From assembly GCA_964356125.1 (NCBI GenBank), contig CAYHHH010000008.1:4337-68336 (forward strand): 64,000 bases of DNA, read 5' to 3'. Of this stretch, positions 2,464-41,610 are shown piece after piece; the stretch's first letter is position 1, and every line of letters begins with the position of its first letter. The notes beneath the pieces were generated by a model that was given only the letters and a program-made list of their open reading frames with translations, did no database searches and was not told the origin of the DNA. The stretch comes from an uncultured Bifidobacteriaceae bacterium. GTDB taxonomy: Bacteria > Acidobacteriota > Vicinamibacteria > Vicinamibacterales > JAMQPK01. The translations under genes were made by a program, and so were the position numbers.

Positions 2464-4334
2464 AGAACCGTTACGTGCTGCTTGGCGATGTGCTGCTGAT
2501 TCCACTGGCAGCGTTCGCTGCATTCGCCGGCCGTTTCGATTTGGGTTTCGTTGGCCAGCGTCCTGAATTCGGTCGCTACGTCGCCGCGGCCTTGGTGATC
2601 AAGCCCATGGTGTTTCTCTGCTTTGGGTTGTACCAGCGCTACTGGCGCTACGCGAGCATCCAGGATCTCGCGGTGGTGGTCTGGGCGGCCACCGTGTCGA
2701 TCTTGGCGATGGCTGCCTATGTGGCCCTCTCGTTCGGCGAGCTCGCGGGGGGCTTCTCGCGAATCGTGCTTTTCAACGACTGGCTGATGACCCTGGCGAC
2801 CGCTGGCGGTCTGCGGGTCGCCGTGCGATTGCTGACGGAGACTGCGTCACGGGATCGTGGAGCCGCGGCCGGCAAGACCCGGCGCGTGCTGGTAGTCGGC
2901 GCCGGTGCCGCCGGGACGATGGTGGTGCGCGAGATGCGGCGAAATCCGCAACTTGGAATGCAACCCGCCGGTTTCTTGGATGACGACATCGACAAGGTCG
3001 GCAAGTATCTCGCCGGTGTTCGAGTCTTGGGTTCCACCGCAGACCTCGCAGACGCCGTCCGTGCCAGCCGCATCGACCATGTGTTGATCGCCATGCCGAC
3101 CGCCCGCGGCGCGGCGGTGCGCAATGTCGTCAACAGCTGCCGCGTCGCTGGCGTGCCTTCACAGATTATCCCCGGCGTCTTCGAACTCATCGGCGGCCGG
3201 GCCAGCGTCAGCCGCATGCGCACTGTTGAGATCGCCGACTTGTTGCGACGCGCCCCGGTCATGCGCGAGACCGATACCGGCATCGTGACCGGCCGGGTCG
3301 TGCTGATTACTGGTGCCGGCGGTTCGATAGGTTACGAGTTGGCGCGCCAGGTTGCCAACGCGTCTCCCGCACGGCTGGTCCTGTTAGGCCATGGCGAGAA
3401 CAGTTTGTTCGAGGCGGAGGCTCGATTGCGCCTGGCCTTTCCGAGCGTCCCGCTCGCTACGGTGATTGCGGATACCCGCGACAACCAGCGGCTGGCCCTC
3501 ATCTTCGACCAGGTGAGGCCGCAGGTCGTGTTTCATGCGGCGGCGCACAAGCATGTCCCTCTGATGGAAGAGAATCCTGAAGAGGCCGTGACCAACAATG
3601 TCACTGGTACTCGCAACGTGGTGAACCAGGCCGTTCGTGTTGGCACCGATCGCCTGGTGTTGATTTCGACCGACAAGGCGGTCTCGCCGACCAGCATTAT
3701 GGGCGCGACCAAGCGCGTGGCCGAAGCCATCGTTCGCCGCGCCGCTCAAGAAACCGGCCGCGCGTTCGTGGTAGTTCGGTTCGGCAACGTCCTTGGCAGC
3801 CGCGGGTCGGTGGTGAATACCTTCAAGGAGCAAATCGAGCGCGGCGGTCCGGTGACCGTGACACACCCGGAAATGACGCGCTTCTTCATGACCATTCCCG
3901 AGGCGGTTCACCTCGTGCTGCAGGCCACGGAAGCCGGCAAAGGTGGAGAGCTGTTCGTCCTCGACATGGGCGAGCCGGTCAAGATCGTTGATCTGGTTCG
4001 AGACCTGATCGTTTTATCCGGACTGGAAGAGGACGAGATCACGGTGGTCTATCGGGGCATGCGACCAGGCGAGAAGTTGCATGAGCGGCTGTACGACGCG
4101 GGATACGAAACACGGCCCACGCCGCATCCTGATGTTCTGGAAGTTATCGGCGCCGATCCCTGTGTCTCCGCCGCTTTGCCCGACTTGGTCCAGAAACTCG
4201 AGCAAGCCGCTCGCCATGGGGATCGGAAAGCCATTACCTGCCAGTTGACCGATCTGGTGCCAGGTTTTGTGCACACTCCGAGTCCTGAGCCGGAGCCGCG
4301 TTCAGCCGTTCCAATCAAAGAAGCCCAATATTGA
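2460..4334 (+). CDS. Membrane-anchored nucleotide-sugar 4,6-dehydratase (PglF/WbpM/CapD family)
   Basis: Hydrophobic N-terminal about 130 aa. Two Rossmann motifs (VVGAGAAG, ITGAGGSIG), STDKAV and MGATKRVAE. ATGA overlap with the upstream gene. Confidence 0.9.
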   Translation: MKNRYVLLGDVLLIPLAAFAAFAGRFDLGFVGQRPEFGRYVAAALVIKPMVFLCFGLYQRYWRYASIQDLAVVVWAATVSILAMAAYVALSFGELAGGFSRIVLFNDWLMTLATAGGLRVAVRLLTETASRDRGAAAGKTRRVLVVGAGAAGTMVVREMRRNPQLGMQPAGFLDDDIDKVGKYLAGVRVLGSTADLADAVRASRIDHVLIAMPTARGAAVRNVVNSCRVAGVPSQIIPGVFELIGGRASVSRMRTVEIADLLRRAPVMRETDTGIVTGRVVLITGAGGSIGYELARQVANASPARLVLLGHGENSLFEAEARLRLAFPSVPLATVIADTRDNQRLALIFDQVRPQVVFHAAAHKHVPLMEENPEEAVTNNVTGTRNVVNQAVRVGTDRLVLISTDKAVSPTSIMGATKRVAEAIVRRAAQETGRAFVVVRFGNVLGSRGSVVNTFKEQIERGGPVTVTHPEMTRFFMTIPEAVHLVLQATEAGKGGELFVLDMGEPVKIVDLVRDLIVLSGLEEDEITVVYRGMRPGEKLHERLYDAGYETRPTPHPDVLEVIGADPCVSAALPDLVQKLEQAARHGDRKAITCQLTDLVPGFVHTPSPEPEPRSAVPIKEAQY

Positions 4335-4383
4335 CAATTGGTTACGGAGCGCGTTTAATGAGTGTTCACGACATGAACACTGG

Positions 4384-5055
4384 GTGGTGTCGCCCAGCTC
4401 CGCCTTGGCTGTAGCCGAGAGGCACGAAGTGTTTCCACCCACAGAACCCGCCGGCCACGAAGCACGTCTCGATGAGCTCCTGCTCCGAATCGAGGATCAG
4501 GGCCGCGTCAGCCAACGATCGCTGGCGCAGGAACTGGGGATTGCACTTGGCCTGACCAATCTGCTCCTTCGCCGTCTCGCGCAACTTGGCTGGATTCAAG
4601 TCGAGCGGCTGAATCGCAACCACGCCCGTTACCTGATCACCCCACTGGGCCTGGCACAGCGGGCCCGCGTCAAGCAACAGAAGCTCGAGCAGGCCATTCG
4701 GTCGTACGCTGACGCGCGTGACCGTGTTCGCGCCAGTCTCGAGCGGCTGTCGGCCGAGTGGCCCGAGCCTGGCGCGCGACAGAAGCGCGTGGTGTTTTTC
4801 GGCGCCAATGAACTGACCGAGATCGCCTCGGTCTGCCTGAAGGGCATGGATCTCCAACTCGTCGCGGTAGTCGACGATGCCCCCCTCTCGAAGCTGGTCG
4901 AGGTGCCGATCATCAAGACCACTGCCCTGACGGCCAGCGCCGCGGACGGGCGGCCATTCGATCGCCTCGTCATGATGACGATGCAATCGCGGGATCGGGT
5001 CACGCCGCGCCTGATAGAAATTGGGTTTCCGCTGGAGAACGTCGCCTGGATTTGA
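4384..5055 (+). CDS. Winged-helix (MarR-like) DNA-binding protein with C-terminal Rossmann-like domain, putative cluster regulator
   Basis: wHTH-like segment VSQRSLAQELGIALGLTNLLLRRLAQLGWIQVERL followed by KRVVFFGANELTE. Start uncertain: GTG 4384 chosen because the 4267 start would overlap the upstream gene by 68 nt. Confidence 0.55.
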   Translation: MVSPSSALAVAERHEVFPPTEPAGHEARLDELLLRIEDQGRVSQRSLAQELGIALGLTNLLLRRLAQLGWIQVERLNRNHARYLITPLGLAQRARVKQQKLEQAIRSYADARDRVRASLERLSAEWPEPGARQKRVVFFGANELTEIASVCLKGMDLQLVAVVDDAPLSKLVEVPIIKTTALTASAADGRPFDRLVMMTMQSRDRVTPRLIEIGFPLENVAWI

Positions 5056-5352: not shown

Positions 5353-6420
<1,068 letters not shown>

Positions 6421-6447: not shown

Positions 6448-7644
6448 ATGACGCAGCCTCCCACGCAACCGCGCCGGGTGATCCCCTACGGCCACCAGAG
6501 CATCAGCGCCGCCGACCGCGAAGCGGTCACGCGCGTGCTGGAGAGCGACTGGCTGACACAGGGCCCCGCTGTCGAGGCCTTCGAAACGGCGCTGCGCGAT
6601 TACTTCGGCTGCGGTCATGCGGTGTCATGTAACAACGGCACGGCGGCCCTCCATCTGGCCGCGCTGGCACTCGAGTGGCAGCCGGGCGACGTCGTCATTG
6701 TCCCGGCCATCACCTTTCTGGCGACAGCCAACTGTGCGGTCTACGTCGGCGCCGAAGCGTGTTTTGCGGATATTGACGACCGCACCTTCACCATCGATCC
6801 CAACGAGGTCGAACGCCATGTCCTGCGGCTTCGTGCCGCCGGCCGCCGCGTGCGCGCCATCGTTGGCGTCGACCTGGCTGGTCATCCGTGCGACTGGGTG
6901 GCATTGCGGGCCTTGGCTGATCGTTACCAGCTTCAGCTCGTTGACGATGGCTGTCACGCCCTTGGCGCAGTCGACAGTTCTGGTGAGCGGGTCGGATCGG
7001 GTCGTTACGCCGACCTCACTACCTTGAGTTTCCATCCGGTCAAGCACATCACCACCGCTGAAGGTGGGGCGGTGTTAACCCGTAATGGCGAACTGGCAAG
7101 CCGGATGATGCGCCTGCGGAGTCACGGTACCGTGCGAGGCGAGAAACAGGTCGCGAGCTGGGAAGGACCGTGGCATTACGACATGGTCGATCTCGGCTAC
7201 AACTACCGGCTGTCCGATCTACAGGCGGCGCTTGGGACCTCGCAGATGGCGCGGCTGCCGGCGTTTGTCGAGCGACGCCGGGCAATTGCCGATCGTTACC
7301 GCGCGCAGTTCGCCGGCTTCGATCGGCTCCGGCTGCCCGTCGAAGTGGGCGGCGCGCGCCATGCTTATCATTTGTTCATCGGACGAGCCGAGTTTGCAAA
7401 CGGGATGTCGCGCCGGCAGTTGTTCGATTACTGCCGTGAGCGCGGGATCATTTTGCAGGTCCACTACCGGCCGGTCCACCGCAACGCGTTTTACCAGCGA
7501 TACGCTGAAGCGCGGGCCGCGGAGTCGTGGACGCCGGTCTCTCGTCGTTATTACGACGAGGCCATCTCGCTGCCGATGTTTCCGGACCTGAGCGACGACG
7601 ACGTCGACTATGTCGTGAGTGTTTTGCGCGAGGCGTTGGCATGA
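6448..7644 (+). CDS. pseC: UDP-4-amino-4,6-dideoxy-N-acetyl-beta-L-altrosamine transaminase, PseC
   Basis: IPYGHQSIS...LESDWLTQGP N-terminus and LSFHPVKHITTAEGG PLP-lysine motif, characteristic of PseC. Immediately follows pseB. Confidence 0.9.
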   Translation: MTQPPTQPRRVIPYGHQSISAADREAVTRVLESDWLTQGPAVEAFETALRDYFGCGHAVSCNNGTAALHLAALALEWQPGDVVIVPAITFLATANCAVYVGAEACFADIDDRTFTIDPNEVERHVLRLRAAGRRVRAIVGVDLAGHPCDWVALRALADRYQLQLVDDGCHALGAVDSSGERVGSGRYADLTTLSFHPVKHITTAEGGAVLTRNGELASRMMRLRSHGTVRGEKQVASWEGPWHYDMVDLGYNYRLSDLQAALGTSQMARLPAFVERRRAIADRYRAQFAGFDRLRLPVEVGGARHAYHLFIGRAEFANGMSRRQLFDYCRERGIILQVHYRPVHRNAFYQRYAEARAAESWTPVSRRYYDEAISLPMFPDLSDDDVDYVVSVLREALA

Positions 7645-8519
7645 CGCAACGAGGTGGCGCGACCCTTGGCCTGGGTACGGCGACCTTCATTCCGGGTTAC
7701 GGGCTTGCGCCTCAGGGCCGGCCGGACGTTTCGCTCTTGCGCCGGGCGGTCAATCTCGGCATTCGCTACATCGATACGGCGGCGGCGTACGGCGACGGCG
7801 AGGCCGCCCTGGCCAACCTTGCCGACGTCGTCGACGTTCACGACGTGCGCGTCTGCACCAAGATTCAGCCGGCGGTGCGGACCGCCGAAGCCTTCGTCGA
7901 CGCCGGTCGCGCGTCGCTCTCGCGACTGCGCCGCGCGCAGGTCGACACCATGATGCTGCACAGCGTGCTTGACGGCAGCGTCGCCGACGCCGGTCTTCGG
8001 CTCGCGTGGCAGGGGCTCAAGTCCGAAGGCATGGCGCGATGGAACGGCGTGTCGACTTACGGCACGGAGCCGGCGTGCCTGGCGGCATCGGAGCCCTGGT
8101 GTGACGTGTTGCAGATCGAGTATTCGATTCTCAACCAGTCGGTGCTGCGGGCCTTGCCGGCCGGCTCGCGGCCTGAAGTGGTGGTCCGGAGCGTGCTGTG
8201 CAAGGGCCTGCTGACCGCGGACGCCGTTGACGGGAGCCTGCCCGCCGAGGTCGCCGCCACCGTTGGCGAGTTGTCGGCACTCGCGGGCGACTTGGGCATG
8301 GATCTGGCCACGCTCGCCATTCGATTTGCGTTGGACTCGGCCGGTGTCGATGTCGTCATCATTGGCATCGCCGACGAGGCCCAACTCGATAGTGCCATCG
8401 CGGCCTGGAAGCGCGCCCCGCTCACTGTCGAGCAATGGACACACGTCGCAGGATTCGACCGCAGCAGGGCTGACTGGAGCCATCCGGAACGCTGGCCCGC
8501 AGGACGCCTGACCGCATGA
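7641..8519 (+). CDS. Aldo/keto reductase family oxidoreductase
   Basis: ATG 7641 inside ORF 7527..8519, ATGA-coupled to pseC. LGLGTATF and IRYIDTAAAYGDGE motifs. Confidence 0.85.
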   Translation: MTQRGGATLGLGTATFIPGYGLAPQGRPDVSLLRRAVNLGIRYIDTAAAYGDGEAALANLADVVDVHDVRVCTKIQPAVRTAEAFVDAGRASLSRLRRAQVDTMMLHSVLDGSVADAGLRLAWQGLKSEGMARWNGVSTYGTEPACLAASEPWCDVLQIEYSILNQSVLRALPAGSRPEVVVRSVLCKGLLTADAVDGSLPAEVAATVGELSALAGDLGMDLATLAIRFALDSAGVDVVIIGIADEAQLDSAIAAWKRAPLTVEQWTHVAGFDRSRADWSHPERWPAGRLTA

Positions 8520-9532
8520 CACGCCCCATCCAGGTGATTGCCGAGATCGCGCAAGGCTTCGAGGGCTCGCTCGCCCAAGCGCGGCTGTTGCTGCGCGCCG
8601 CTGCCGCGGCTGGAGCCGACGCAGCGAAGTACCAGCTGGTTTATGCAGACGAGTTGGCGTCGCCCGACTACGTTCACTACGCATTGTTCCGGTCGCTGGA
8701 GATGCCTGACGAGGCGTGGCAGGAACTGGCCGACTACGCGACGCAGCTCGGGATCGAACTGCATCTCGATATCTTCGGCACGCGCAGCCTTGAACTGGCC
8801 GGTCGGATCGGAGCCGCCACCGTCAAAGTGCATGGCACCGACTTGGCCAACGACGGCTTACTCACCGCGGTGGCCGGCAGCGCCGCGGTATCGGTGTTGC
8901 TCGGCGCCGGCGGCGCGCATGCCACCGAGATCGACCGCGCGCTCGACATCCTCGCCGGCAAGTCGGTCGTCGTGCTGCTTGGGTTCCAGGGGTACCCGAC
9001 CCCTGACGATACTAATCAGATCGCCAGGGTCACGGCGATGGTCGAAGGCCTGCGCCGGCGGCATGATCGGCTCCGGGTTGGATTCGCCGATCACGCCAAC
9101 CCCGAGACGCCGCTTCGTTATGCGCTGGCCGCCGCCGCCGTGGGCGCCGGTGCGGCCGTCATCGAGAAACACCTGACACTGGCCCGCGTGATGGCGCTGG
9201 AGGATCACGAATCCGCTCTCGGCCCTGACGAGTTCGCCGAATTTACCCGCACCATTCGCGGATGCGCGGGAGCCGTTGGCGTCGCGAACTTGAGTGCCGA
9301 TGACTTCGGCATGAGCGACGCGGAGAAGGCGTATCGCGCGATGATTCGCCGTCATGTGGTGGCCAGCCGCGATCTGCCGGCGGGCACCACGCTGGCGGCG
9401 GCCGACATGGTGCTGAAGCGCACCTCGGCGGCGCAGCCGCTCGTCGATTGCCGCGCGGTTTATGGACGGCGCCTGGTCCGCGGCATTGGCACGAATGCGC
9501 CGATCCTGGCAGGCGATCTGGACACCGAATGA
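8516..9532 (+). CDS. Divergent NeuB-family (sialic/nonulosonic acid synthase-like) protein with C-terminal SAF domain
   Basis: IAEIAQGFEGSLAQARLLLRAAAAAGADAAKYQ replaces canonical IAEIGxNHNG...GADAVKFQ. GFADHA metal-site motif and EKHLTL are present. C-terminal SAF-like RRHVVASRDLPAGTTL. Confidence 0.8.
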   Translation: MTRPIQVIAEIAQGFEGSLAQARLLLRAAAAAGADAAKYQLVYADELASPDYVHYALFRSLEMPDEAWQELADYATQLGIELHLDIFGTRSLELAGRIGAATVKVHGTDLANDGLLTAVAGSAAVSVLLGAGGAHATEIDRALDILAGKSVVVLLGFQGYPTPDDTNQIARVTAMVEGLRRRHDRLRVGFADHANPETPLRYALAAAAVGAGAAVIEKHLTLARVMALEDHESALGPDEFAEFTRTIRGCAGAVGVANLSADDFGMSDAEKAYRAMIRRHVVASRDLPAGTTLAAADMVLKRTSAAQPLVDCRAVYGRRLVRGIGTNAPILAGDLDTE

Positions 9533-10329
9533 GCCGTCGTCTCGTCGCCGCTGTCGCCTGCCGCAACCAGGGCGCCCGCCTGTACGGCAAGCCGCTTCAG
9601 AACCTTGACGTCGACCGTGGCGTTCGTATCATCGACAACATCATCGGCTGCTTGAAGAGCCTTCGCGATGTTGACGAGATCGTGCTCGGCATTTCAGAGG
9701 GCATCGAAAACGAAGCGTACCGCATGGTCGCCGAGCAGCACGGTCTCTCCTTCATCGTCGGCGACCAGAAAGACGTGCTGTGGCGTCTTGTGCAATGCGG
9801 TGACCAGGGTCACGCCACCGATATCTTTCGCATCACCAGCGAATCGCCCTTTCTTTACTTTGAGCCGGTCGCGCAGATGTGGCAGCGGCACCAGGCCGAG
9901 CACGCCGACGCCACTTTTCTCTGGGACATCATCGACGGCGCGGGGTGCGAAATCTACACCATGGAGACCCTGCGGGCCTCGCACGCGCGTGGGGCTGCGA
10001 AACACCGTTCCGAGCTGTGCTCGCTGTACGTGCGCGAACATCCCGAGGAGTTCAACGTCCTGCGCATCGATGCGCCCGTGGAACTGCGCCGCAAGGATGT
10101 GCGCCTGACGGTGGACTATCCGGAAGATCTGGTCGTGTGCCGTGCGGTCTACCGGGCGCTGCGCGCGCAGGCGCCGCGGCTGAGCGTGCCCGACATCGTG
10201 CGCTTTCTCGACGCGCATCCGCGGTTGCTCGAACTGCTGGCGCCGTATACCGAGGCGGGCTACGCCACCATGGACTTGTGGGGCGCCAAGCTGGCGGTGC
10301 CTCCCGGCGGTTCGCCAGAAAGGGCCTGA
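9529..10329 (+). CDS. SpsF-like cytidylyltransferase-family protein (CTP_transf_3-like)
   Basis: ATG 9529 inside ORF 9448..10329, ATGA-coupled. VAAVACRNQGARLYGKPL N-terminus and RLTVDYPEDL motif, typical of the SpsF/acylneuraminate cytidylyltransferase family. Confidence 0.8.
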   Translation: MSRRLVAAVACRNQGARLYGKPLQNLDVDRGVRIIDNIIGCLKSLRDVDEIVLGISEGIENEAYRMVAEQHGLSFIVGDQKDVLWRLVQCGDQGHATDIFRITSESPFLYFEPVAQMWQRHQAEHADATFLWDIIDGAGCEIYTMETLRASHARGAAKHRSELCSLYVREHPEEFNVLRIDAPVELRRKDVRLTVDYPEDLVVCRAVYRALRAQAPRLSVPDIVRFLDAHPRLLELLAPYTEAGYATMDLWGAKLAVPPGGSPERA

Positions 10330-10330
10330 C

Positions 10331-11674
10331 GTGATCACCAACTTTGCCAATTCGAAAGCCTACTCGGCGCGGATCCACGATCTGATCCCGGGCGGCGCGC
10401 ACACTTACTCGAAGGGCGACGACCAGTTTCCTGCCCTCGCGCCGGCCGCGATCTCGCACGGCAAGGGCGCCTATGTCTGGGACGTCGACGGCAACCGCTA
10501 TCTGGATTGCTCGATGGGCCTGACCTCGGTCAGCCTTGGCCACGCCCATCCACCGGTGCTCGACGCGGTCAAGGCCGAGCTGGATCGCGGCGTGAATTTT
10601 CAGCGGCCCTCGATGCTCGAGCTGCAGACCGCCGAGGCGTTTCTCTCGCTTGTGCCCCAGCACGACATGATCAAGTTCGCCAAGAACGGCTCGACCGTTA
10701 CCACCGCTGCCGTAAAGCTCGCGCGGGCGAAGACAGCGCGCAAGCTCGTGGCATTTCCAGGCGACCATCCTTTCTACAGCTACGATGATTGGTTCATTGG
10801 TACCACCGCATCGAGCAAGGGAGTGCCCGAAGAAATATCGTCCTTGTCGCGCACTTTCCGATCGTGCGACCTGGAGTCGCTTGCGGAGCTGTTTGAGAAA
10901 TACCCGGGGCAGATCGCCGGCGTCATCACCGAGCCAGAGAAAAGCACCTGCGGCGCAGGCTGTCGATGCGGTGGCAAGCCGGGTGAGTTTCTTCAGAAAG
11001 CGATCGAGCTCACGCATCGAGAGGGCGCGCTTTTCATCTTGGACGAAATGATCACCGGCTTCAAGACGGCGTGGCCGGGATCGATCAGCAAGTATGGCCT
11101 GCGGCCGGACATGGCGACCTGGGGTAAGGGCATAGCCAACGGGTTTGCCTTTTGCGCCCTGACGGGCACTAAGGAGGTGATGGAGTTAGGCGGTATCCGC
11201 GCGCTTGGCCAGGAAAAGGTGTTCCTGATTTCTACTACGCATGGTGCGGAAACGCACGCGATGGCTGCGGCGTTGGCTACCATTGACGAATTCAAACAGA
11301 AGAACGTGGTCGGGCACAACCACTCGATCGGTCGCCGTTTGGCTGAGGATTGCCATCGCGCCGTCGTCGCCTCTGGACTCGAGGCCTCCCTGCAAGTCGT
11401 CATGTGCGACTGGATGGTGACGTTCATCTACCGGAACGCGTCGGGGGAGTCCTCTTCGGGCCTCCGGACGCTGTTCATGCAGGAGATGATCAAGCGAGGC
11501 GTCCTGTTTCAGGGGATCTTCGTGCCTTGCCTTTCGCATTCCCTTGCGGACGTAGCCACTTTCGCCGAGGCATTTACCTCTTCACTCGATGTCTATGCCA
11601 AGGCTGTGGCGGAAGGTCATGAGAACTACTTGGTTGGGCTACCGGCCAAGCCTGTGTTCCGAAAGATTCTGTAG
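10331..11674 (+). CDS. Class-III PLP aminotransferase (glutamate-1-semialdehyde 2,1-aminomutase-like)
   Basis: IPGGAHTYSKG, FILDEMITGF and TWGKGIANG (PLP lysine). GTG start 1 nt after the upstream stop. Confidence 0.85.
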   Translation: MITNFANSKAYSARIHDLIPGGAHTYSKGDDQFPALAPAAISHGKGAYVWDVDGNRYLDCSMGLTSVSLGHAHPPVLDAVKAELDRGVNFQRPSMLELQTAEAFLSLVPQHDMIKFAKNGSTVTTAAVKLARAKTARKLVAFPGDHPFYSYDDWFIGTTASSKGVPEEISSLSRTFRSCDLESLAELFEKYPGQIAGVITEPEKSTCGAGCRCGGKPGEFLQKAIELTHREGALFILDEMITGFKTAWPGSISKYGLRPDMATWGKGIANGFAFCALTGTKEVMELGGIRALGQEKVFLISTTHGAETHAMAAALATIDEFKQKNVVGHNHSIGRRLAEDCHRAVVASGLEASLQVVMCDWMVTFIYRNASGESSSGLRTLFMQEMIKRGVLFQGIFVPCLSHSLADVATFAEAFTSSLDVYAKAVAEGHENYLVGLPAKPVFRKIL

Positions 11675-11800: not shown

Positions 11801-12676
11801 ATGTCTATCAGCGCGCACGACGACGAGTTACCAAGCGTCGTAAGAGGAGCAACGAATCGTGATGCGGGGGTGGTCGTGACCGCGGATCAACGGCGGGGCA
11901 TCCGGGTTGGCCTGAAACTGTGGTCGCCTAACTTGGACCTGGCGTCACGCGTGGTTGAGATACACCGAGAGGGCTGGATCGATCTCGTCGAACTCTATGT
12001 GGTGCCTGGGACATTTGAGGCCACGATGGAAGGCTGGCGGGGACTTGGGGTGCCGTTCATGCTTCATTGCCCCCATGCAGCCCACAAATTCAATCTGGCA
12101 AAGGCCGAGTTGTTCGAGCCAAACAAATGCAAGTTCGAAGAGGTTCAGCGATTTGCCGATGCACTGCGGGCGGAAGTCATTGTGACCCACGGTGGCAACC
12201 GGGGAAGCATCGACGAAACCATTCGACAGCTGAAGCACTTCAACGATCGGCGAGTCTACATCGAGAACAAACCAAAGCTGAGCCTGACGGGCGGCCTTTG
12301 TGTCGGCCACTCTCCGGAAGAAATCGGTCAGATTTTGGGTTCGGCAGATATCGGTGGCTTCGTTCTCGATTTCGGGCACGCGACCTGCGCCGCGAATTCC
12401 GCCAAAGCAGACGCCTTTGACTACATTGCGAGGTTCGTGGCTCTCAATCCCAGGGTTTTTCACATTGGGGACGGCGATCGAACTTCCGAGAAGGACAACC
12501 ACTTCAACTTTGGTCAGGGTAGCTTCGACATTGCTCGACTCGTCTCTTACGTGCCCCCGTCGAGTGTGCTGACAATAGAAACGCCGACCGACCTGAAGCG
12601 TGGTCTCAACGACTTCGTGGAGAACGCGCGCCACCTGCGGAAGGCGATCGAAGGCTTGGATGAGTCGCGGCACTAG
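11801..12676 (+). CDS. Xylose-isomerase-like TIM-barrel protein (sugar phosphate isomerase/epimerase fold)
   Basis: Alternating beta/alpha pattern with VIVTHGG, VYIENKP, FVLDFGHA and LTIETP strands. Start uncertain (ATG 11801 or GTG 11870). Confidence 0.6.
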   Translation: MSISAHDDELPSVVRGATNRDAGVVVTADQRRGIRVGLKLWSPNLDLASRVVEIHREGWIDLVELYVVPGTFEATMEGWRGLGVPFMLHCPHAAHKFNLAKAELFEPNKCKFEEVQRFADALRAEVIVTHGGNRGSIDETIRQLKHFNDRRVYIENKPKLSLTGGLCVGHSPEEIGQILGSADIGGFVLDFGHATCAANSAKADAFDYIARFVALNPRVFHIGDGDRTSEKDNHFNFGQGSFDIARLVSYVPPSSVLTIETPTDLKRGLNDFVENARHLRKAIEGLDESRH

Positions 12677-13580: not shown

Positions 13581-14279
13581 ATGAGATTGGGCCTCGTTGC
13601 CGATATTCACGGCAACGTCGACGCCTTGACGGCCACGCTTGCTGAGGCTCGCGCGCTGGGCGTGCAGCGATTGCTCTGTTGTGGTGACGTTGTCGGCTAT
13701 TACTACGAACCTGCACAGTGTCTTGAGCTCTTGGCCGAGTGGGAGACGGAGAGCGTCCGGGGCAATCACGAGAACATGCTGTCCCGGCTCATTAACGAAC
13801 CTGCAGTCGAGTTAAGTTTTCGGCGCCAATTCGGAAGCGGCCTCTCGGTGGCCGCAACCACCCTAACGCCCAAACAGCTGACGTACCTGGCGAGCCTGCC
13901 CGCGCATAAAGCCCTCGAAATTGAAGGCAAGACAATTCTCCTTTGCCACGGTGCGCCTTGGGACACCGACGAGTATGTGTACCCAGAGTCCCAGGCCAGC
14001 ACTTTCCTGCGCTGCGCCAGCCTGGGCGCGGACTATGTCGTGATGGGTCACACCCATTGTCAGATGGAGGAGCGAATAGGAACAACGGTTCTGATTAATC
14101 CTGGCTCGGTGGGACAGCCTCGGCGAGGGCGGCCGGCCGGGCACTGGGCGGTCCTCGATCTTGATAGCGGCGTCTGCACGCATCACACCGCGGACTATGA
14201 CCCAGGCGGGGTGATCGCGCGGGCTCGCGAGACCGACCCCCATTTTCCCTTTCTCTGGCAAGTTCTCGACCGTCAGTGA
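13581..14279 (+). CDS. Metallophosphoesterase (YfcE/MJ0936-like)
   Basis: Calcineurin-like motifs VADIHGN, CCGDVVGY, GNHE, CHGAPW and GHTH. Confidence 0.85.
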   Translation: MRLGLVADIHGNVDALTATLAEARALGVQRLLCCGDVVGYYYEPAQCLELLAEWETESVRGNHENMLSRLINEPAVELSFRRQFGSGLSVAATTLTPKQLTYLASLPAHKALEIEGKTILLCHGAPWDTDEYVYPESQASTFLRCASLGADYVVMGHTHCQMEERIGTTVLINPGSVGQPRRGRPAGHWAVLDLDSGVCTHHTADYDPGGVIARARETDPHFPFLWQVLDRQ

Positions 14280-15228: not shown

Positions 15229-16278
15229 ATGGCCACTAGTGCACTGTCCGAACAGCTGAAGCAATCGACTCGTCCGTTCATCATCGCGGAGATGTCGGGC
15301 AATCATAACCGCTCCTTGGAGCGCGCGTTGGCGATCGTGGACGGAGTGGCGAAGTCGGGCGCTCACGCGTTGAAGATTCAGACCTACACCCCCGACACGA
15401 TGACCATCGATATCAACGAGCGCGAGTTCCACATCAGCGATCCGAACAATCTGTGGGCCGGCCGTTCGCTCTATGAGCTCTACGGAGAGGCCTATACACC
15501 GTGGGACTGGCACGGACCCATTTTCGCGCGCGCGCGTGAGCTGGGTCTGATCGCCTTCAGCACGCCGTTCGACGACAGTGCCGTCGAGTTTCTCGAGAGT
15601 CTCGATGTGCCCTGTTACAAAATTGCATCGTTCGAGAACACCGATTTGCCTCTCGTTCGACGGACAGCCGCGACGGGCAAGCCCCTGATCATCTCCACCG
15701 GGATGGCCACCGTGGCGGAGCTCGACGAGACAGTTCGCGCGGCTCGAGAAGAGGGATGCACGGACCTCGTCTTGCTCAAATGCACCAGCACATACCCAGC
15801 GACCGCGGCGGACACCAATCTCGTCACCCTGCCACATTTGCGCGACCTTTTCGGCTGCGAGGTAGGCGTTTCAGACCACACCATGGGGGTGGGCGTTTCA
15901 GTCGCCAGCATCGCTCTAGGCGCTACTGTTGTCGAAAAGCACTTCACACTCAGCCGCGCCGAAGGCGGTGTGGACAGTGCGTTCTCGATGGAGCCTCATG
16001 AGATGTCCCAGCTTGTTGTCGAGACCGAGCGCGCCTGGCAGGCCATGGGACGGGTGACCTATGGACCAACAGCAGCGGAGAGGAATTCGCTGCAGTACCG
16101 ACGCTCCTTGTATGTGGTGCAGGACCTCGTGGCTGGCGAAGTACTTACGCACGTGAATGTCCGTGCGATTCGGCCAGGTCTCGGCCTGCCGACCAAGCAC
16201 ATTTCGCAGATCCTTGGGCGAACTGTGAGATGCGACATCAAGAGAGGAACCGCATTGACTTGGGAGTTGATCGGATGA
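15229..16278 (+). CDS. pseI: Pseudaminic acid synthase, PseI
   Basis: ATG 15229 inside ORF 15112..16278. IIAEMSGNHNRSLERALAIVD...GAHALKIQTYTPDTMT, GVSDHT, EKHFTL and a C-terminal SAF domain. Confidence 0.9.
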   Translation: MATSALSEQLKQSTRPFIIAEMSGNHNRSLERALAIVDGVAKSGAHALKIQTYTPDTMTIDINEREFHISDPNNLWAGRSLYELYGEAYTPWDWHGPIFARARELGLIAFSTPFDDSAVEFLESLDVPCYKIASFENTDLPLVRRTAATGKPLIISTGMATVAELDETVRAAREEGCTDLVLLKCTSTYPATAADTNLVTLPHLRDLFGCEVGVSDHTMGVGVSVASIALGATVVEKHFTLSRAEGGVDSAFSMEPHEMSQLVVETERAWQAMGRVTYGPTAAERNSLQYRRSLYVVQDLVAGEVLTHVNVRAIRPGLGLPTKHISQILGRTVRCDIKRGTALTWELIG

Positions 16279-36329: not shown

Positions 36330-37127
36330 GTGAGTATTTCGGTGCCTGTGCCTTCATATACGGTTGTCATTCCCGCTCGCATGGCGTCGTCACGCTATCC
36401 CGGCAAGCCGCTCGAGTTGATTCTCGGCTTGCCGATGGTCGAGCACGTGCGGCGGCGGGCGCTGCTGGCGGCCGGCGCCTCAGAGGTCGTCGTCGCCACC
36501 TGTGACGACAGCATTCTTGCTGCGGTCACGGCGGCCGGTGGCCGGGCCGTGATGACCGCCGACACCCACGAGCGTTGCACCGATCGCATTGAGGAGGCCA
36601 TGCGCTCGCTGCCCGGTGAGATCGTGGTCATGGTGCAGGGCGACGAGCCGCTGTTGATGCCCGATGCGGTCTCGCGGATCGCGCAGCCGTTGCTCGATCG
36701 CGCCGACGTGAGCTGCACCAACCTGCTGTCGCCGCTCGAGAGCGACGCCGATCTCGACAACCCGAACATTGTGAAGGCCGCCTGCGATCGGTCCGGCCGC
36801 ATCATGTTTTTCACCCGCGCCCGGATTCCGTACTACCGCAGCCGCGTCGACTGTCCGATCTACCGGCAGACCGGCATCATGGGGTTCCGCACCGGCCTGT
36901 TGCGCGCCTACGCGGCGATGCCCGAAACGCCGTTCGAGCGCGCCGAGTCGGTCGACATGCTGCGCCTGCTCGAGCACGGCCATGCGATTCAGGGCGTCGT
37001 GGTCGACTATCCGACGGTCGGCGTCGACCGGCCGGAGGACGTGCCGCTGGTCGAGCGCATTCTCCGCGAGAATGCGGTCCAGCGCGATATTCACGCCCGC
37101 ATCCAAGGGAGAGGTCCGGTCCAATGA
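36330..37127 (+). CDS. KdsB-family cytidylyltransferase (CMP-ulosonic acid synthetase-like)
   Basis: VIPARMASSRYPGKPL, VVVATCDD, HERCTDRI, VQGDEPL and GVDRPEDV, colinear with CMP-Kdo synthetase motifs. Confidence 0.8.
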   Translation: MSISVPVPSYTVVIPARMASSRYPGKPLELILGLPMVEHVRRRALLAAGASEVVVATCDDSILAAVTAAGGRAVMTADTHERCTDRIEEAMRSLPGEIVVMVQGDEPLLMPDAVSRIAQPLLDRADVSCTNLLSPLESDADLDNPNIVKAACDRSGRIMFFTRARIPYYRSRVDCPIYRQTGIMGFRTGLLRAYAAMPETPFERAESVDMLRLLEHGHAIQGVVVDYPTVGVDRPEDVPLVERILRENAVQRDIHARIQGRGPVQ

Positions 37128-38155
37128 CGCGACGTTTACGCGCCGGGATCGTCGGTTACGGCTACATGGGCGAAATTCGCCGCCGCAACATCGATGAGCT
37201 CGACGGTCTCGAGCTGGTCGGCGTCGTCGATCCGTTTGCCGCCGGCCGGCTGCCGGCGAGCGTGGCGGTTTACGATTCGTACCAGGAGCTGGTCGCGGCC
37301 GGCATCGACGCGCTGTTTGTCTGCACGCCGAACCACGTGACGCCCGAAGCCGTGATCTACGGCCTCGAGCACGGCTGCCATGTCTTCAGCGAGAAGCCGC
37401 CGGGCCGGACGCTCGGCGACATCCAGCGCATTGTCGACGCGGAGCGGCGCCATCCGGAACTGAAGCTGGTGTTCGGCTTCAACCATCGCTATCACCCCGG
37501 CATCACCGACGCCAAGGCGATCGTCGACAGCGGTTCGCTCGGGCGAATCCTGACCTTGCGCGGGGTCTACGGCAAGTCGGGCGGTCAGGGCTTCGAGCGA
37601 TCCTGGCGGAACAATCCGGCGGAGGGTGGCGGCGGCATTCTGCTGGATCAAGGCATCCACATGCTCGACCTGTTCCGTTTTTTCTGCGGTGACTTCGACG
37701 AAGTGGTTGGCTTCATCAATGCCGCCTACTGGGAGATTCCGGTCGAGGACAACGCGATGGTCCTGCTGCGCAACCGCGCCGGCCAGGTCGCGCATCTCCA
37801 CTCGTCGGCGACGTCGTGGAAGCACACGTTCCGGCTCGAGATTGGGCTCGAGCGCGGCTACCTGACGATCAGTGGTCTGTTGTCCAAGACCGGCAGCTAC
37901 GGCCGCGAAACCTTGCTGGTCGGCCGCCGTCCCGCCAGCGGGGAAGCCTCAGCGCTCGGCAATCCGCGTGAAGAGCTGACCTACTACGACAGCGACCCGT
38001 CGTGGATCGCCCAGGTCGACCGCTTCGTCGACTGCATCCTGACCAACACGCCGGTGACCGAGAGCAGCGCCCACGACGCGCTGCGCGTAATGGAGATCGT
38101 CGACACGGTGTACCGGAGTGCGGCCGAGCGGTCGCCGCGGGGAGTGACGTCATGA
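37124..38155 (+). CDS. Gfo/Idh/MocA-family NAD(P) oxidoreductase
   Basis: GIVGYGYMG Rossmann, EKPP motif (FSEKPPGRT) and a C-terminal alpha/beta domain. Confidence 0.85.
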   Translation: MTRRLRAGIVGYGYMGEIRRRNIDELDGLELVGVVDPFAAGRLPASVAVYDSYQELVAAGIDALFVCTPNHVTPEAVIYGLEHGCHVFSEKPPGRTLGDIQRIVDAERRHPELKLVFGFNHRYHPGITDAKAIVDSGSLGRILTLRGVYGKSGGQGFERSWRNNPAEGGGGILLDQGIHMLDLFRFFCGDFDEVVGFINAAYWEIPVEDNAMVLLRNRAGQVAHLHSSATSWKHTFRLEIGLERGYLTISGLLSKTGSYGRETLLVGRRPASGEASALGNPREELTYYDSDPSWIAQVDRFVDCILTNTPVTESSAHDALRVMEIVDTVYRSAAERSPRGVTS

Positions 38156-39156
38156 AGACCGTTGTGTCGCTGCAGGATCTGCTCGACGGCGAAATCCGGC
38201 CGCAGGCGCTGATCGCCGAGTATCAGGGATTGGTCGACCGCGACCTCAGGCAATGGTGGGCGGCGCATCCGCTTCGCGCGGTGCCGTGCCCGGCGTGCCA
38301 GAGCGATCGATCGACGCCGGCCTTCGAGCGGTTCGGCGCCCGTTACTGCCAGTGCGAGGGCTGTGCCTCGTTGTTCGTCTCGCCGCGCCCGGACGAAGCG
38401 GCGCTGGTCGAGTTCTACCGCGATGCACCGGCGGCGAAGTTCTGGCGCGAGCGGATCTGGCCGACCACGGCGGCGACGCGCCGCGAGAAGCTGGCGCGGC
38501 CCCGCGCGGAGTGGGTCAACGAAGGGCTTGCCGAGTATGCGCCGAAGGCGGTCAGTGGTCTCGACATCAGTCCGTACGGTGGCGCCGTGGCCGAAGAACT
38601 GGCGCGCGCCGGACGGCCGATGATGGCGGCAGCGTGGCTGGCCGATCTCGATATTCCGTCGCCGGTCGACGGTGTCACCGTGCGGCCGTCGCTCATCACC
38701 GGTCTGTCGGCAATCGGGCCAAGGGATTTCGTGACCGCGTTCGACGTCCTCGACCGCGCCGCGGACGTCCCGGCGCTGATGGCCGCGGTCGCCGAGGTGT
38801 TGCCGCCCGGCGGACTGTTGTTCCTCACGGCGACCAACGCCGATGGCTTCGACCTGCAGGTCCTGTGGTCCAAGGCGCCGACGCTGGCGCCTCCCGACAA
38901 GCTCAACGTGTTGTCGGTCGACGGCCTGCTGAAGCTGCTGTCGGGTCCGGAATGGGAAGTGCTGGAGTTCAGCACCCCAGGCTTGTTCGATGTCGAGCAA
39001 GTGCGGCGGGCGGTCGCCGCCGACCCCACCGGTGATTGGCCCAGGCCGGTGCGCCGTTTGCTGGCGCGCGGCGGCGGCGCGCTCGACGATTTCCAGGAAT
39101 TCCTCCAGCGCCATCGCCTGGCGTCATTTGCCCGCCTCGTCGTGCGGCGGCGGTAA
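38152..39156 (+). CDS. Zn-ribbon-containing methyltransferase-fold protein (degenerate SAM motif I)
   Basis: ATG 38152 ATGA-coupled. CPACQS...CQCEGCASLFVSPRP Cys pairs. Motif I reads LDISPYGG instead of DxGxGxG. Paralog of 40603..41610 and 12707..13561. Confidence 0.6.
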   Translation: MKTVVSLQDLLDGEIRPQALIAEYQGLVDRDLRQWWAAHPLRAVPCPACQSDRSTPAFERFGARYCQCEGCASLFVSPRPDEAALVEFYRDAPAAKFWRERIWPTTAATRREKLARPRAEWVNEGLAEYAPKAVSGLDISPYGGAVAEELARAGRPMMAAAWLADLDIPSPVDGVTVRPSLITGLSAIGPRDFVTAFDVLDRAADVPALMAAVAEVLPPGGLLFLTATNADGFDLQVLWSKAPTLAPPDKLNVLSVDGLLKLLSGPEWEVLEFSTPGLFDVEQVRRAVAADPTGDWPRPVRRLLARGGGALDDFQEFLQRHRLASFARLVVRRR

Positions 39157-39173
39157 GAGAAGGGACGAAGCCA

Positions 39174-39968
39174 GTGCTCGCAGCCGAGATCAAAGCCAAG
39201 CTGAAGCGGGGCGAAGTGAGCCTCGGGTCGTGGATGTCCATGGCCCATGTGTCGATCGCCGAGATCCTCGCTTCGGCGGGATACGACTGGGTGGTGATCG
39301 AGACCGAACACACCGCGATCGACAACCACGAGGTGTTGCGCCTGCTGCCCGCAATCGAACATGCCGGGGCGGTACCGCTCGTGCGGCTGGCATGGAACGA
39401 CGCCATCCAGTGCAAGGCCGTGCTCGATTCCGGCGCTGCCGGGGTGCTGGTGCCCATGGTGAATTCGCGCACCGAAGCCGAGCTCGCCGTGAAAGCAGTG
39501 AAGTACCCGCCGATGGGTACCCGCGGCGTCGGCCTCGCGCGGGCGCAACATTACGGTGAGCGGTTCGCCGAGTACGTTGCGCAGGCCAACGATTCGACCT
39601 TGCTAATCGTGCAGATCGAGCACGTGGATGCAGTGCGCAACATTGAGGAGATTCTCGACGTGCCCGGCATCGACGGCACGTTCATCGGACCGTACGACCT
39701 GTCCATGTCGATGGGCCTACCCGGCCAGCTCGACCATCCCGATATTCTGCAGGCACGTCGCCGCGTCCTCGAGGCCACCAAGGCCCGGGGCCTTGCACCG
39801 GGTATCCACCTGGTGCATCCGGACCGGGCAGTTGCCGACATTGCTTCGGTCATCGCCGAGGGCTACCAGTTCATCGCCCTGGGTACCGACATTCTGTTCC
39901 TGGGCGATTCGTGCCGCGCCGTCCAGCGCGCCACGGCCGCCGCGGTGTCAGCCGTCGCGCCGAAGTGA
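39174..39968 (+). CDS. HpcH/HpaI-family class II (metal-dependent) pyruvate aldolase
   Basis: GTG 39174 inside ORF 39036..39968. GSWMSMAHVSIAEILASAGYDWVVIETEH, VRLAWND, VLVPMVNS, YPPMGTRG, IEHVDAV and GPYDLS. Confidence 0.85.
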   Translation: MLAAEIKAKLKRGEVSLGSWMSMAHVSIAEILASAGYDWVVIETEHTAIDNHEVLRLLPAIEHAGAVPLVRLAWNDAIQCKAVLDSGAAGVLVPMVNSRTEAELAVKAVKYPPMGTRGVGLARAQHYGERFAEYVAQANDSTLLIVQIEHVDAVRNIEEILDVPGIDGTFIGPYDLSMSMGLPGQLDHPDILQARRRVLEATKARGLAPGIHLVHPDRAVADIASVIAEGYQFIALGTDILFLGDSCRAVQRATAAAVSAVAPK

Positions 39969-40606
39969 GCCGCGTCCGCGCACTGGTTCTCGATTTCGAT
40001 GGTGTGATCCTCGAGTCGAACGATCTGAAGACGGCGGCATTCGACGCCGTGTTTTCGCGGTTTCCCGAACACCAGGCCGCGATGATGGCGTTTCACCACG
40101 CTCATGTCGCCGAATCACGCTACGTCAAGTTCCGGCACCTGGCGACCGCACATCTCGGCCGGCCTGCCGATGACCCGATCGTCGAAGAGCTGGTCACTGG
40201 ATTTTCAACCGAGATGCAGGCCCGTCTTGCACGGTGCCCGATGGTCGCAGGCGCCGACGCGTTCCTGGATCGCGTGCGCGGCCGCTTACCGTTGTACCTC
40301 GCCTCGATGACTCCCGCCGCCGAACTCGACGACCTGCTGGCGCTTCGTGGTCTGCGGGCGACCTTTACTGGGGTCTACGGATGCCCGCCGTGGCCCAAGG
40401 AGCAGGCCTTGAACGAAATTGTGGCCGTGCACGGCCGCGACGGACTGCTGTTCATCGGCGATTCGGCTGGCGATCAACGCGCGGCCGCGCGGACCGGCAT
40501 CGAATTCATCGGCCGTGACAGCGGCTTGCCGTTCGACGAGCCGCTTCCGCGGTCGTATCCCAACATGGTCGAACTCCTCTCAGCCATCGACGAGCGTTTG
40601 CCATGA
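39965..40606 (+). CDS. HAD-superfamily hydrolase/phosphatase
   Basis: GTG 39965 GTGA-coupled. DxD motif VLDFDGVILES, ASMTP and IGDSAGD. Paralog of 30353..31024. Confidence 0.8.
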   Translation: MSRVRALVLDFDGVILESNDLKTAAFDAVFSRFPEHQAAMMAFHHAHVAESRYVKFRHLATAHLGRPADDPIVEELVTGFSTEMQARLARCPMVAGADAFLDRVRGRLPLYLASMTPAAELDDLLALRGLRATFTGVYGCPPWPKEQALNEIVAVHGRDGLLFIGDSAGDQRAAARTGIEFIGRDSGLPFDEPLPRSYPNMVELLSAIDERLP

Positions 40607-41610
40607 CTACGCCGATGCGCGAGAACGACATCAGGCCCAAGGCGCTGCTCGACGAGTTCTTTGCCCGCTTGAAGCGTGACGCGGATCGCCTGGCGGCGCG
40701 CCGCGCCTCGTTCGTCGACGTGCCTTGTGGCCTGTGCGGATCGGCCGACAGCGCTCAGACCTTCGTGAAAGACGGATTCCCTTATCGCACCTGCAGCTCG
40801 TGCAGCTCGCTGTTTGCCAGCCCGCGCCCGACCGAAGCCGCCCTGATCGACTACGCGGAGACCTCCGAAGCGGTGGAATTCTGGAGCACGCATTTTTATC
40901 GCGAGACCGCGGCCGCTCGCCGGGAGCGGATGTTCCGGCCGCGCGCCGCGCTCGCCATGGAGATCGCCTCGCGCTACGGGCTGACCGGTGAGGTCAGAGC
41001 CGCTGACGTCGGTGCCGGCTACGGCCTGTTCCTGCTCGAACTGCAGGCGATTGCTCCGGCGTGGTCGCTCACGGCAATCGAACCGGATCAGCGGTTGGCA
41101 GCCGTCTGTCGCGAACATGGGCTCGAGGTCGATCAGCGGTGGGTGGAGCAGATCGGCGATGGCGAGCTGGGCATGGATTTCGTCGCCGCCTTCGAGGTGA
41201 TCGAGCACGTGTTCGATCCGGCGGCGTTCATCGACGCCTGCCGGCGGCTGCTGCGGCCAGGCGGTATCGCGCTCGTCACGACGCTCACCATTTCCGGATT
41301 CGATCTCCAGGTGCTCGGCGCCGCATCGCGCTCAATCACGCCGCCTCAGCACTTGAATTTCCCTTCGGTCGCGGCAGTGGCGCGGCTGGCGGCGCGCACC
41401 GGCTTCGAGGTCGTTGAAGTGTCCACGCCCGGGCAGCTCGACGTCGATATCGTTCGTAACGTCTATCTTGAACATCCGGAGTTCGTGCAGGACGCCTTCG
41501 CGCGCTCTATGGCCATGGCGGGTGACGAGACGCGACAGGCCTTCCAAGCCTTCTTACGCGAGCATCGCATGAGCTCGCATCTGAGGTGCGTGCTTCGCCG
41601 TGTGCGGTGA
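40603..41610 (+). CDS. Class I SAM-dependent methyltransferase with Zn-ribbon N-terminus
   Basis: CGLCGS...CSSCSSLFASPRP, motif I DVGAGYG and LRPGGIALV. Confidence 0.75.
   Translation: MTTPMRENDIRPKALLDEFFARLKRDADRLAARRASFVDVPCGLCGSADSAQTFVKDGFPYRTCSSCSSLFASPRPTEAALIDYAETSEAVEFWSTHFYRETAAARRERMFRPRAALAMEIASRYGLTGEVRAADVGAGYGLFLLELQAIAPAWSLTAIEPDQRLAAVCREHGLEVDQRWVEQIGDGELGMDFVAAFEVIEHVFDPAAFIDACRRLLRPGGIALVTTLTISGFDLQVLGAASRSITPPQHLNFPSVAAVARLAARTGFEVVEVSTPGQLDVDIVRNVYLEHPEFVQDAFARSMAMAGDETRQAFQAFLREHRMSSHLRCVLRRVR

Follow-up and report, generated by a model that had tools for sequence, protein, structure and literature searches.

Pseudaminic and legionaminic acids are decorations of flagella, capsules and lipopolysaccharide that influence recognition by the immune system and the attachment of phages; their structural variety is far better known than the genetics behind it. 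A 64,000-nucleotide stretch of DNA from an uncultured bacterium of the Acidobacteriota (assembly GCA_964356125.1, contig CAYHHH010000008.1, positions 4,337 to 68,336; henceforth the window) puts this problem in a concrete form. Its pseudaminic acid (Pse) locus has a PseI synthase gene, and yet between pseC and pseI, with a cassette lying where the standard order of Pse clusters has pseF, there are four genes for an aldo/keto reductase (AKR), a divergent NeuB-family protein (here NeuBL), a cytidylyltransferase of the SpsF type, with the KdsB/NeuA fold (SpsFL), and a class-III aminotransferase (AT3). What is the second NeuB-family enzyme for, and do these four genes belong together? We find that they are a conserved accessory module of Pse-type loci. 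Its core, judging from gene order and fusions, appears to be the NeuBL-SpsFL pair, always beside an ordinary synthase, with AKR and AT3 as a putative second pair, found with the activase whether NeuBL is there or not.

The genes lie on the + strand in the order pseB, pseC, AKR, NeuBL, SpsFL, AT3, a TIM barrel gene, a methyltransferase, a metallophosphoesterase, an ATP-grasp gene, pseI and a GNAT gene. The context is set by pseB, coding for the inverting UDP-GlcNAc 4,6-dehydratase (5365..6420; TIGR03589, 517.1 bits, cut-off 407.75), and by the aminotransferase gene pseC (6448..7644; TIGR03588, 451.9 bits, cut-off 423.5). The cassette itself comprises AKR (7641..8519; PF00248 Aldo_ket_red, 95.9 bits), NeuBL, with a NeuB fold and a SAF domain (8516..9532; PF03102, 112.2 bits, and PF08666, 27.3 bits), SpsFL (9529..10329; PF02348 CTP_transf_3) and AT3, a HemL-like protein of the PRK06209 type (10331..11674; NF004856, 540 bits, cut-off 486; Aminotran_3, 142.5 bits). 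The long open reading frame (ORF) of SpsFL spans 9448-10329, with the ATG at 9529 as the most likely true start; it scores 22.0 bits on CTP_transf_3 against a cut-off of 22.6, and in a six-frame scan of the genome the score was 22.6 bits, marked as over the cut-off. ATGA stop/start overlaps join pseC to AKR (7641-7644), AKR to NeuBL (8516-8519) and NeuBL to SpsFL (9529-9532), and AT3 begins with a GTG codon separated by a single base from the SpsFL stop, an arrangement from which the cassette genes are predicted to be translationally coupled to one another and to pseC. Between the genes no promoter-like or terminator-like sites were found beyond the expectation from shuffled sequence. The initial annotation, made from the sequence alone, had given the same coordinates, domains and tight coupling.

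To see how widely this arrangement is kept, we used a genome survey with one genome per species and mechanical ORF calls and clustering, which gave 55 loci, 50 of them with a called NeuBL. The full AKR-NeuBL-SpsFL-AT3 order is present in 34 of the 46 loci that could be scored. SpsFL directly follows NeuBL in 44 of 48 loci, and SpsFL and then AT3 do so in 37 of 46; in 41 of 50, AKR immediately precedes NeuBL or is separated from it by a single Acyl_transf_3 gene, and PseC lies 5' of NeuBL in 37 of 50. Most loci have PseB and PseC upstream of the cassette and PseI downstream, another NeuB-family gene occurs in the same 20 kb as NeuBL in 41 of 50, and a PseG-like gene is present in 29 of 50. Pfam searches on sample loci confirmed AKR, RmlD-like, PseG::GNAT and formyltransferase neighbours. 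The carriers span Pseudomonadota, Bacteroidota, Acidobacteriota, Nitrospirota, Planctomycetota, Gemmatimonadota, Actinomycetota and others, with Devosia sp. UYZn731 (L012) and Polynucleobacter bastaniensis (L020) among them, and NeuBL has hundreds of relatives with 60-69% identity in unrelated phyla, its AE[LI]AQGFEG loop being invariant in all 20 aligned sequences.

The cassette had been described as inserted between pseBC and pseI. It does fall within that span, with four further genes separating it from pseI, but the same arrangement is kept across phyla, so it is no insertion; a recent insertion or foreign island is likewise ruled out by the conserved order together with a GC content (0.61-0.66) equal to that of the flanks. 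The locus as a whole may have been acquired horizontally, since just 3 of the 401 genomes sampled from the phylum proved to have SpsFL-like genes. A plasmid collection held no NeuBL relative at E 1e-30, and a protein atlas search returned generic NeuB-family names only. In several loci (L001, L016, L017, L020, L023, L025, L030 and others) a membrane Acyl_transf_3 gene stands between AKR and NeuBL, this gene cluster occurring in 13 loci overall, which suggests O-acylation of the product in those organisms.

NeuBL is clearly apart from the known synthases. It scores 142.6 bits on the NeuB_NnaB model (TIGR03569, cut-off 399.65) and 100.9 bits on the PseI model (TIGR03586, cut-off 340.25), on which the window's own pseI, the second NeuB-family synthase of the locus (15274..16278, + strand), reaches 489.5 bits; the pseI ORF runs from 15112 and the model match begins at residue 55. 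In a tree of 103 NeuB-family proteins from the surveyed loci, NeuBL sequences form a group of 39 to 45 rows with a Shimodaira-Hasegawa-like approximate likelihood ratio (SH-aLRT) support of 97-98, and the PseI of the window falls in a separate group of 35 rows (support 98). NeuBL was thus rightly taken as a second, divergent member of the family that lies outside the PseI and NeuB clades, and the motifs reported for it (IAEIAQGFEGS, GFADH and the SAF domain) are all in the sequence. Its AlphaFold 2 (AF2) model (mean predicted local distance difference test score, pLDDT, 87.1) matches best the Campylobacter jejuni PseI structure 8H2C, with a template modelling (TM) score of 0.77, followed by Neisseria meningitidis NeuB (NmNeuB; 0.73-0.74), with which it shares the TIM barrel and SAF domains; its best sequence match is SpsE (1VLI).

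We mapped residues to NmNeuB by a HMMER alignment and a MAFFT alignment of the 103 proteins (51 NeuBL and 52 co-resident synthases), taking their roles from PMC11339185 and PMC6795526. The counterparts of NmNeuB E25, K53, Q55, K129, D214, H215, E234, H236, D247 and R314 are kept in all 51 NeuBL, which uniformly have the metal-binding H193 and H219, E10 and E217, the carboxylate-binding K38 and K104, Q40, D230 and the SAF-domain R302; Y160 is kept in 40. Two lysines bind the carboxylate of phosphoenolpyruvate (PEP) in NmNeuB, and the counterpart of R302 binds the N-acetyl group (PMC11339185). A dead paralogue, one of the outcomes the initial annotation had envisaged, can therefore be ruled out, given that metal and catalytic residues are invariant in a family 60-69% identical across phyla.

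Fusions argue for a tie between NeuBL and SpsFL. In a set of 31 longer SpsFL relatives, NeuB and SAF domains occur in 20, an Aminotran_3 domain in 10 and a GFO/IDH/MocA domain in one; a search for AKR fusions found none, which is weak evidence. A metagenome scan recovered 80 loci, 68 of them with both NeuBL and SpsFL, and in 26 of these 68 the two are fused in frame. Since they are so often one polypeptide, NeuBL and SpsFL form a functional pair, as proposed when NeuBL was first credited with a cytidylyltransferase of its own. In unfused loci with at least 2 kb downstream, AT3 comes next after the pair in 22 of 24.

Is SpsFL then the activase of the locus? Its AF2 model (pLDDT 90.1) matches best an uncharacterised Leptospira cytidylyltransferase (6OEW; TM 0.78/0.87, 18% identity), then CMP-Kdo synthetases (TMq 0.57-0.61) and a CMP-Kdn synthetase (TMq 0.54), a fold in keeping with an activase. 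R12, R17, K21, D196, P198, D200 and L201 are invariant in 26 SpsFL sequences, and we take the N-terminal Arg/Lys and C-terminal acidic motifs to have the roles of the corresponding cytidylyltransferase motifs. SpsFL proteins linked to NeuBL are 34-70% identical to that of the window, and 49 aligned sequences belong to the same cluster. SpsFL has no match to the PseF model TIGR03584 at E up to 0.01. The source genome (G000, 97.87% complete) contains neither a PseF over the cut-off nor a match to PseG (TIGR03590), and PseF is over the cut-off in none of 35 carrier genomes. We rejected this absence alone as proof of a missing PseF, because activases of the SpsF type escape that model.

Genomes of the same phylum are more telling. 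PseI is over the cut-off in 15 of the 401 sampled, and of the other 14 only three match TIGR03584 at E 1e-15. Six Pse clusters lacking NeuBL were retrieved from these genomes, and because five of the six place an SpsF-type activase between pseC and pseI, we conclude that such enzymes are the resident activases of many Pse clusters, in place of PseF. They are 22-27% identical to SpsFL and score 82-125 bits on CTP_transf_3; SpsFL is a divergent branch of these activases that accompanies NeuBL. One of the clusters has the order AKR-activase-AT3 (L063) and another an activase::AT3 fusion of 724 amino acids (L059). The Pse clusters L059 to L063 are without a PseF of the TIGR03584 type, and L060 encodes a PseG::GNAT::WbqC fusion of 778 amino acids.

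AKR and AT3 look active from their conserved residues. The D, Y, K and H positions of AKR, presumably its catalytic tetrad, are conserved in at least 95% of 42 orthologues, and the lysine of the AT3 GK motif is conserved in 44 sequences. AT3 as the HemL of heme synthesis was rejected on score (TIGR00713, 184.5 bits, cut-off 527.3) and glycan context, although its nearest solved relatives are HemL enzymes, followed by D-phenylglycine, C-6' aminoglycoside, fumonisin and formycin aminotransferases. The name of the PRK06209 model (NF004856) is provisional, its core members being in glycan loci, and a member over the cut-off occurs in 9 of the 401 phylum genomes. Its top-scoring members adjoin a nucleotidyltransferase in glycan loci without Pse genes: L068 (9140-11923) has CTP_transf_3, AT3 and then a carbon-nitrogen hydrolase (CN_hydrolase), and L066 (8561-11437) NTP_transferase, AT3 and then a PIG-L deacetylase. 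Since in several contexts the family stands directly after, or is fused to, nucleotidyltransferases, AT3 may act on a nucleotide-linked substrate or yield such a product, contrary to the initial expectation that enzymes of its class do not normally act on NDP-keto sugars.

Related gene sets have been seen before, as annotation. The polar-flagellin islands of group I Aeromonas (pseB-pseC-reductase-pseF-class III aminotransferase-pseG-pseI), with a single Pse derivative on the flagellin, share with the window the order pseB-pseC-reductase-activase-class III aminotransferase; unlike the window, no second NeuB-family gene is described for them in the available part of that report (PMC7874193). AKR and AT3 thus occur with an activase in the absence of NeuBL, both in Aeromonas (PMC7874193) and, with one of the SpsF type, in the phylum clusters, and so are not specific partners of NeuBL. 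A survey of Vibrio and Moritella noted a bifunctional SpsF-like::AKR gene after pseC and suggested that it replaces NeuA (PMC7371886), and Legionella O-antigen loci of serogroups 6 and 12 contain PseG, a GSA aminomutase, a cytidylyltransferase and an aryl-alcohol-dehydrogenase-like gene (PMC3694923). In Bacillus subtilis, SpsF is the proposed CMP-Leg (legionaminic acid) synthetase, its mutant accumulating Leg in the mother cell, in connection with the spore crust; SpsE and SpsF there are a synthase and an SpsF-type cytidylyltransferase as NeuBL and SpsFL are here, while, in the accessible part of the source, neither an AKR nor a class-III aminotransferase is described for the sps locus (PMC7439481). 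In our alignment SpsE retains the canonical loop and serines, unlike NeuBL. Leptospira offers a similar synthase and SpsF-type pairing (6NCS/6OEW).

Compared with the canonical Campylobacter/Helicobacter pathway (PseB, PseC, PseH, PseG, PseI, PseF), the window thus shares PseB, PseC, PseI and a GNAT gene after pseI, shows neither a PseG match nor a PseF that passes the cut-off, and brings in AKR, a class-III aminotransferase, an activase of the SpsF type and a second enzyme of the NeuB family. The reading we favour, at somewhat less than an even chance, is that NeuBL and SpsFL serve as synthase and activase for a second CMP-nonulosonate, on which AKR and AT3 act as tailoring enzymes. NeuBL would join a 2-acetamido sugar of the same pathway to a three-carbon enol donor, for which PEP is still the likeliest candidate, and its product would be a second nonulosonic acid beside that of PseI. 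SpsFL would activate this product with CTP and, in loci that have no other nonulosonate activase, probably Pse too. AKR and AT3 would be an oxidoreductase/transaminase pair working on the substrate or product of the activase, and the simplest outcome would be the conversion of a hydroxyl, through a keto intermediate, into an amino group. Such logic is known from Kdo8N, made in Shewanella with the oxidase KdnB and the aminotransferase KdnA, and from gentamicin, in which GenQ/GenB1 oxidise a hydroxyl of a finished sugar and transaminate the carbonyl, with oxidation enzymes of other families than AKR. The locus would then put out a CMP-nonulosonate that is modified, probably by an extra amino group, either alongside plain CMP-Pse5Ac7Ac or in its place. 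A Pse-like glycan of Aeromonas hydrophila AH-1 has an odd nominal mass, 403 Da (PMC4691044), which implies an odd number of nitrogens; it is a weak lead.

Several observations weigh against this reading, and we gather them here with the alternatives they favour; the points most worth testing are the rebuilt PEP site and the constant presence of NeuBL beside a second synthase. The serine triad that holds the PEP phosphate is fully conserved in bacterial synthases and in mammalian Neu5Ac-9-phosphate synthases (PMC11339185). The NeuBL of the window has G107, G130 and A191 at these positions. Among the 51 NeuBL, the S132 position is Gly in 31, Ser in 14, Pro in 4 and Thr in 2, the S154 position Gly in 37, Ser in 12 and Ala in 2, and the S213 position Ala in 44, Met in 3, Ser in 2 and Gln in 2, in a mapping by sequence alignment in which loops may be shifted by one residue; the 52 co-resident synthases retain Ser in 50, 47 and 49, respectively. 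In all 51 NeuBL the Thr110 position is Asp and the Asn184 position Gln. The Asn-His of the first loop is Gly-Phe/Tyr, and new polar residues line the pocket (D85, Q158 and N112 in all 51, T108 in 50 and H106 in 48). On this evidence the donor site, i.e. the PEP-phosphate pocket, appears rebuilt, and because the phosphate-binding serines and T110 are changed, the use of PEP by NeuBL is not assured. The initial annotation had taken the altered N-terminal loop to mean a different aldose; the change in the loop is real, but the phosphate pocket differs as well, so that the donor side is equally concerned.

NeuBL might accordingly have given up PEP altogether and remodel a preformed PseI or LegI product before SpsFL acts, for instance by epimerisation at C4 through a retro-aldol/aldol sequence or by enolisation or elimination at C3/C4, leaving the other synthase as the only true one. 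The pattern of change suits this idea, in that the phosphate triad is altered and yet every residue also able to bind product is kept, with the new invariant polar residues D85, Q158, N112, H106 and T108 in the pocket; fusion to SpsFL would fit a step directly before activation, and most loci have two synthases for one nonulosonate-type activase. Still, at two positions of the triad 12 to 14 of the 51 NeuBL have retained Ser, phosphate might be rebound by T108 or by the glycine-rich GAGG loop, and we know of no NeuB-family member that is an epimerase or lyase. We consider remodelling unlikely, although the company that NeuBL keeps speaks for it. A second NeuB-family gene is present in all 35 carrier genomes (PseI over the cut-off in 29) and in 18 of the 20 metagenome loci with 4 kb on both sides (6 of 6 fused, 12 of 14 unfused). 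NeuBL never replacing the other synthase is odd for a simple parallel route. In the other direction points L100, where CTP_transf_3::PseG, NeuBL::SpsFL and a NeuB-family gene follow one another, since two activases and two synthases side by side fit two separate routes.

Frequent fusion, and a pair that accompanies the ordinary synthase and never replaces it, would both be explained if NeuBL and SpsFL worked as one machine with no free nonulosonic acid, the widened, serine-poor phosphate pocket of NeuBL taking a cytidylylated enolpyruvate made by the very divergent SpsFL or holding the CMP-linked product, so that condensation would give the CMP-sugar directly. This would be a new way to make activated sialic-acid-like sugars, and we give it very little credence.

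Returning to the synthase-activase pair tailored by AKR and AT3, its tailoring half meets difficulties of its own. AT3 comes next in only 1 of 15 fused NeuBL::SpsFL loci with at least 2 kb downstream, and because the fused form is mostly without AT3 and in Leg-like contexts, AKR and AT3 cannot be obligatory for the pair; this and the AKR-activase-AT3 sets without NeuBL speak against AKR and AT3 as partners specific to NeuBL. The fused pair does also occur in a Pse setting with AT3, as in L128 (PseB, PseC, AKR, an unassigned gene, PseI, NeuBL::SpsFL, AT3, GNAT). To our knowledge, there is no precedent for an AKR working as an alcohol oxidase. Literature searches for the gene combination returned annotation only, with no biochemistry for any of the four proteins.

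The role of SpsFL as activase of Pse itself is also open to challenge, as the lack of PseF noted above means only that none of the TIGR03584 type is present. On contig C24 of G000 there is a NeuA-like gene that scores 125.3 bits on the PseF model; its product could activate Pse in trans, and so could that of a KdsB-type cytidylyltransferase gene of the window (36330..37127, + strand; NF009905, 266.3 bits, cut-off 255; TIGR00466, 167.1 bits, cut-off 155.2). In 20 of the 35 carriers, the coordinates place a KdsB-type activase no further than about 25 kb from the second synthase (PseI in 18 genomes), and together with the C24 gene this weakens the candidacy of SpsFL as sole activase. The NeuA-like gene has a third NeuB-family gene, scoring 232 bits on the PseI model, some 2.4 kb away (C24 33738-37742, L056), in what is a further nonulosonate locus.

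If Pse is activated by another enzyme, NeuBL and SpsFL could produce and activate some ulosonic acid that has nothing to do with Pse, starting from a common aldose that PseB and PseC do not supply; this is the initial interpretation in its strict form. The fused NeuBL::SpsFL mostly sits in Leg-like contexts, with a dehydratase, aminotransferase and synthase only 24-48% identical to those of the window, so the substrate need not be L-altro, and the two complete pairs of L100 and the NeuA-like activase elsewhere in G000 would also be accommodated. But the pair was never found without another NeuB-family synthase, 23 of the 35 carriers have no NeuA/PseF-type match of at least 100 bits, and SpsF-type enzymes are the resident activases of Pse clusters without NeuBL. 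On balance we doubt this explanation about as much as that of remodelling.

The surroundings of the KdsB-type gene bring up a last alternative. This gene heads a block with GFO/IDH/MocA, HpcH aldolase, HAD hydrolase and methyltransferase genes (36330-41610), and with PseI, NeuBL and this aldolase the window has three carbon-carbon bond-forming ulosonate enzymes, in line with the proposal of up to three ulosonate routes. In 18 of the 35 carriers an aldolase shares its contig with the second synthase and is no more than about 25 kb away from it, against none near PseI in the 14 PseI-positive phylum genomes without NeuBL (one match lies elsewhere in one genome), a contrast that is a lead only, as the two samples differ in taxonomy and are not independent. 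A flagellin of Treponema denticola carries a Pse-configured sugar with a 2-methoxy-4,5,6-trihydroxy-hexanoyl group (PMC13439194), and we may speculate that the aldolase, reductase and methyltransferase block fits a 2-methoxy-3-deoxy-hexonoyl side chain of this kind.

The four-gene cassette might itself build such an acyl or amino-acyl substituent for the amino group of Pse, with NeuBL making a short 2-keto-3-deoxy acid, AKR reducing its C2 keto group or AT3 aminating it, the methyltransferase and ATP-grasp enzymes finishing and attaching it, and SpsFL being merely a PseF analogue. Keto acids and aldehydes are natural substrates of AKRs and class-III aminotransferases, the methyltransferase and ATP-grasp genes stand between AT3 and pseI, and the constant PseI would be explained; the T. 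denticola group is indeed a 3-deoxy-hexonic acid (PMC13439194). Against it, the residues for binding a 2-acetamido hexose, the Arg among them, are retained in NeuBL, no more than 13 of the 55 genome loci, and the window besides, have an ATP-grasp gene, sets of AKR, activase and AT3 exist without NeuBL, the NeuBL-activase fusion is left unexplained, and the aldolase module at 36330-41610 fits an acyl group at least as well. We regard it as quite improbable.

Some other neighbours deserve mention. Just 5' of pseB lies a gene for a MarR/winged-helix regulator (4267-5055). A xylose-isomerase-like TIM barrel gene (AP_endonuc_2; 11801..12676, + strand; PF01261, 37.4 bits) follows AT3, where most other loci have pseG; genes of this type, immediately behind SpsFL or AT3 and ahead of pseI, recur in the window, L006, L078, L085, L098, L140-L142, L144 and L148. 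No PseG-like gene was called in the window or in L006, and the TIM barrel, perhaps jointly with the metallophosphoesterase at 13581-14279, may do the work of the UDP-sugar hydrolase that is missing.

Overall, the initial observation of a second NeuB-family cassette is confirmed and its interpretation partly supported. The underlying pathway is known; what is new here is the NeuBL clade with its changed serine triad, the fusions, the constant second synthase, the SpsF-type activase in place of PseF and the KdsB/aldolase neighbourhood. The NeuBL signature (D85, H106, T108, Q158 and A191 with the AQGFEG loop) gives a concrete starting point. The cassette is among the commonest unexplained additions to Pse and Leg loci, and working it out would improve the prediction of nonulosonate structures from genomes, settle the Pse activase in the many genomes without a PseF-type gene and test whether an enzyme of the NeuB fold can work with a rebuilt PEP site.

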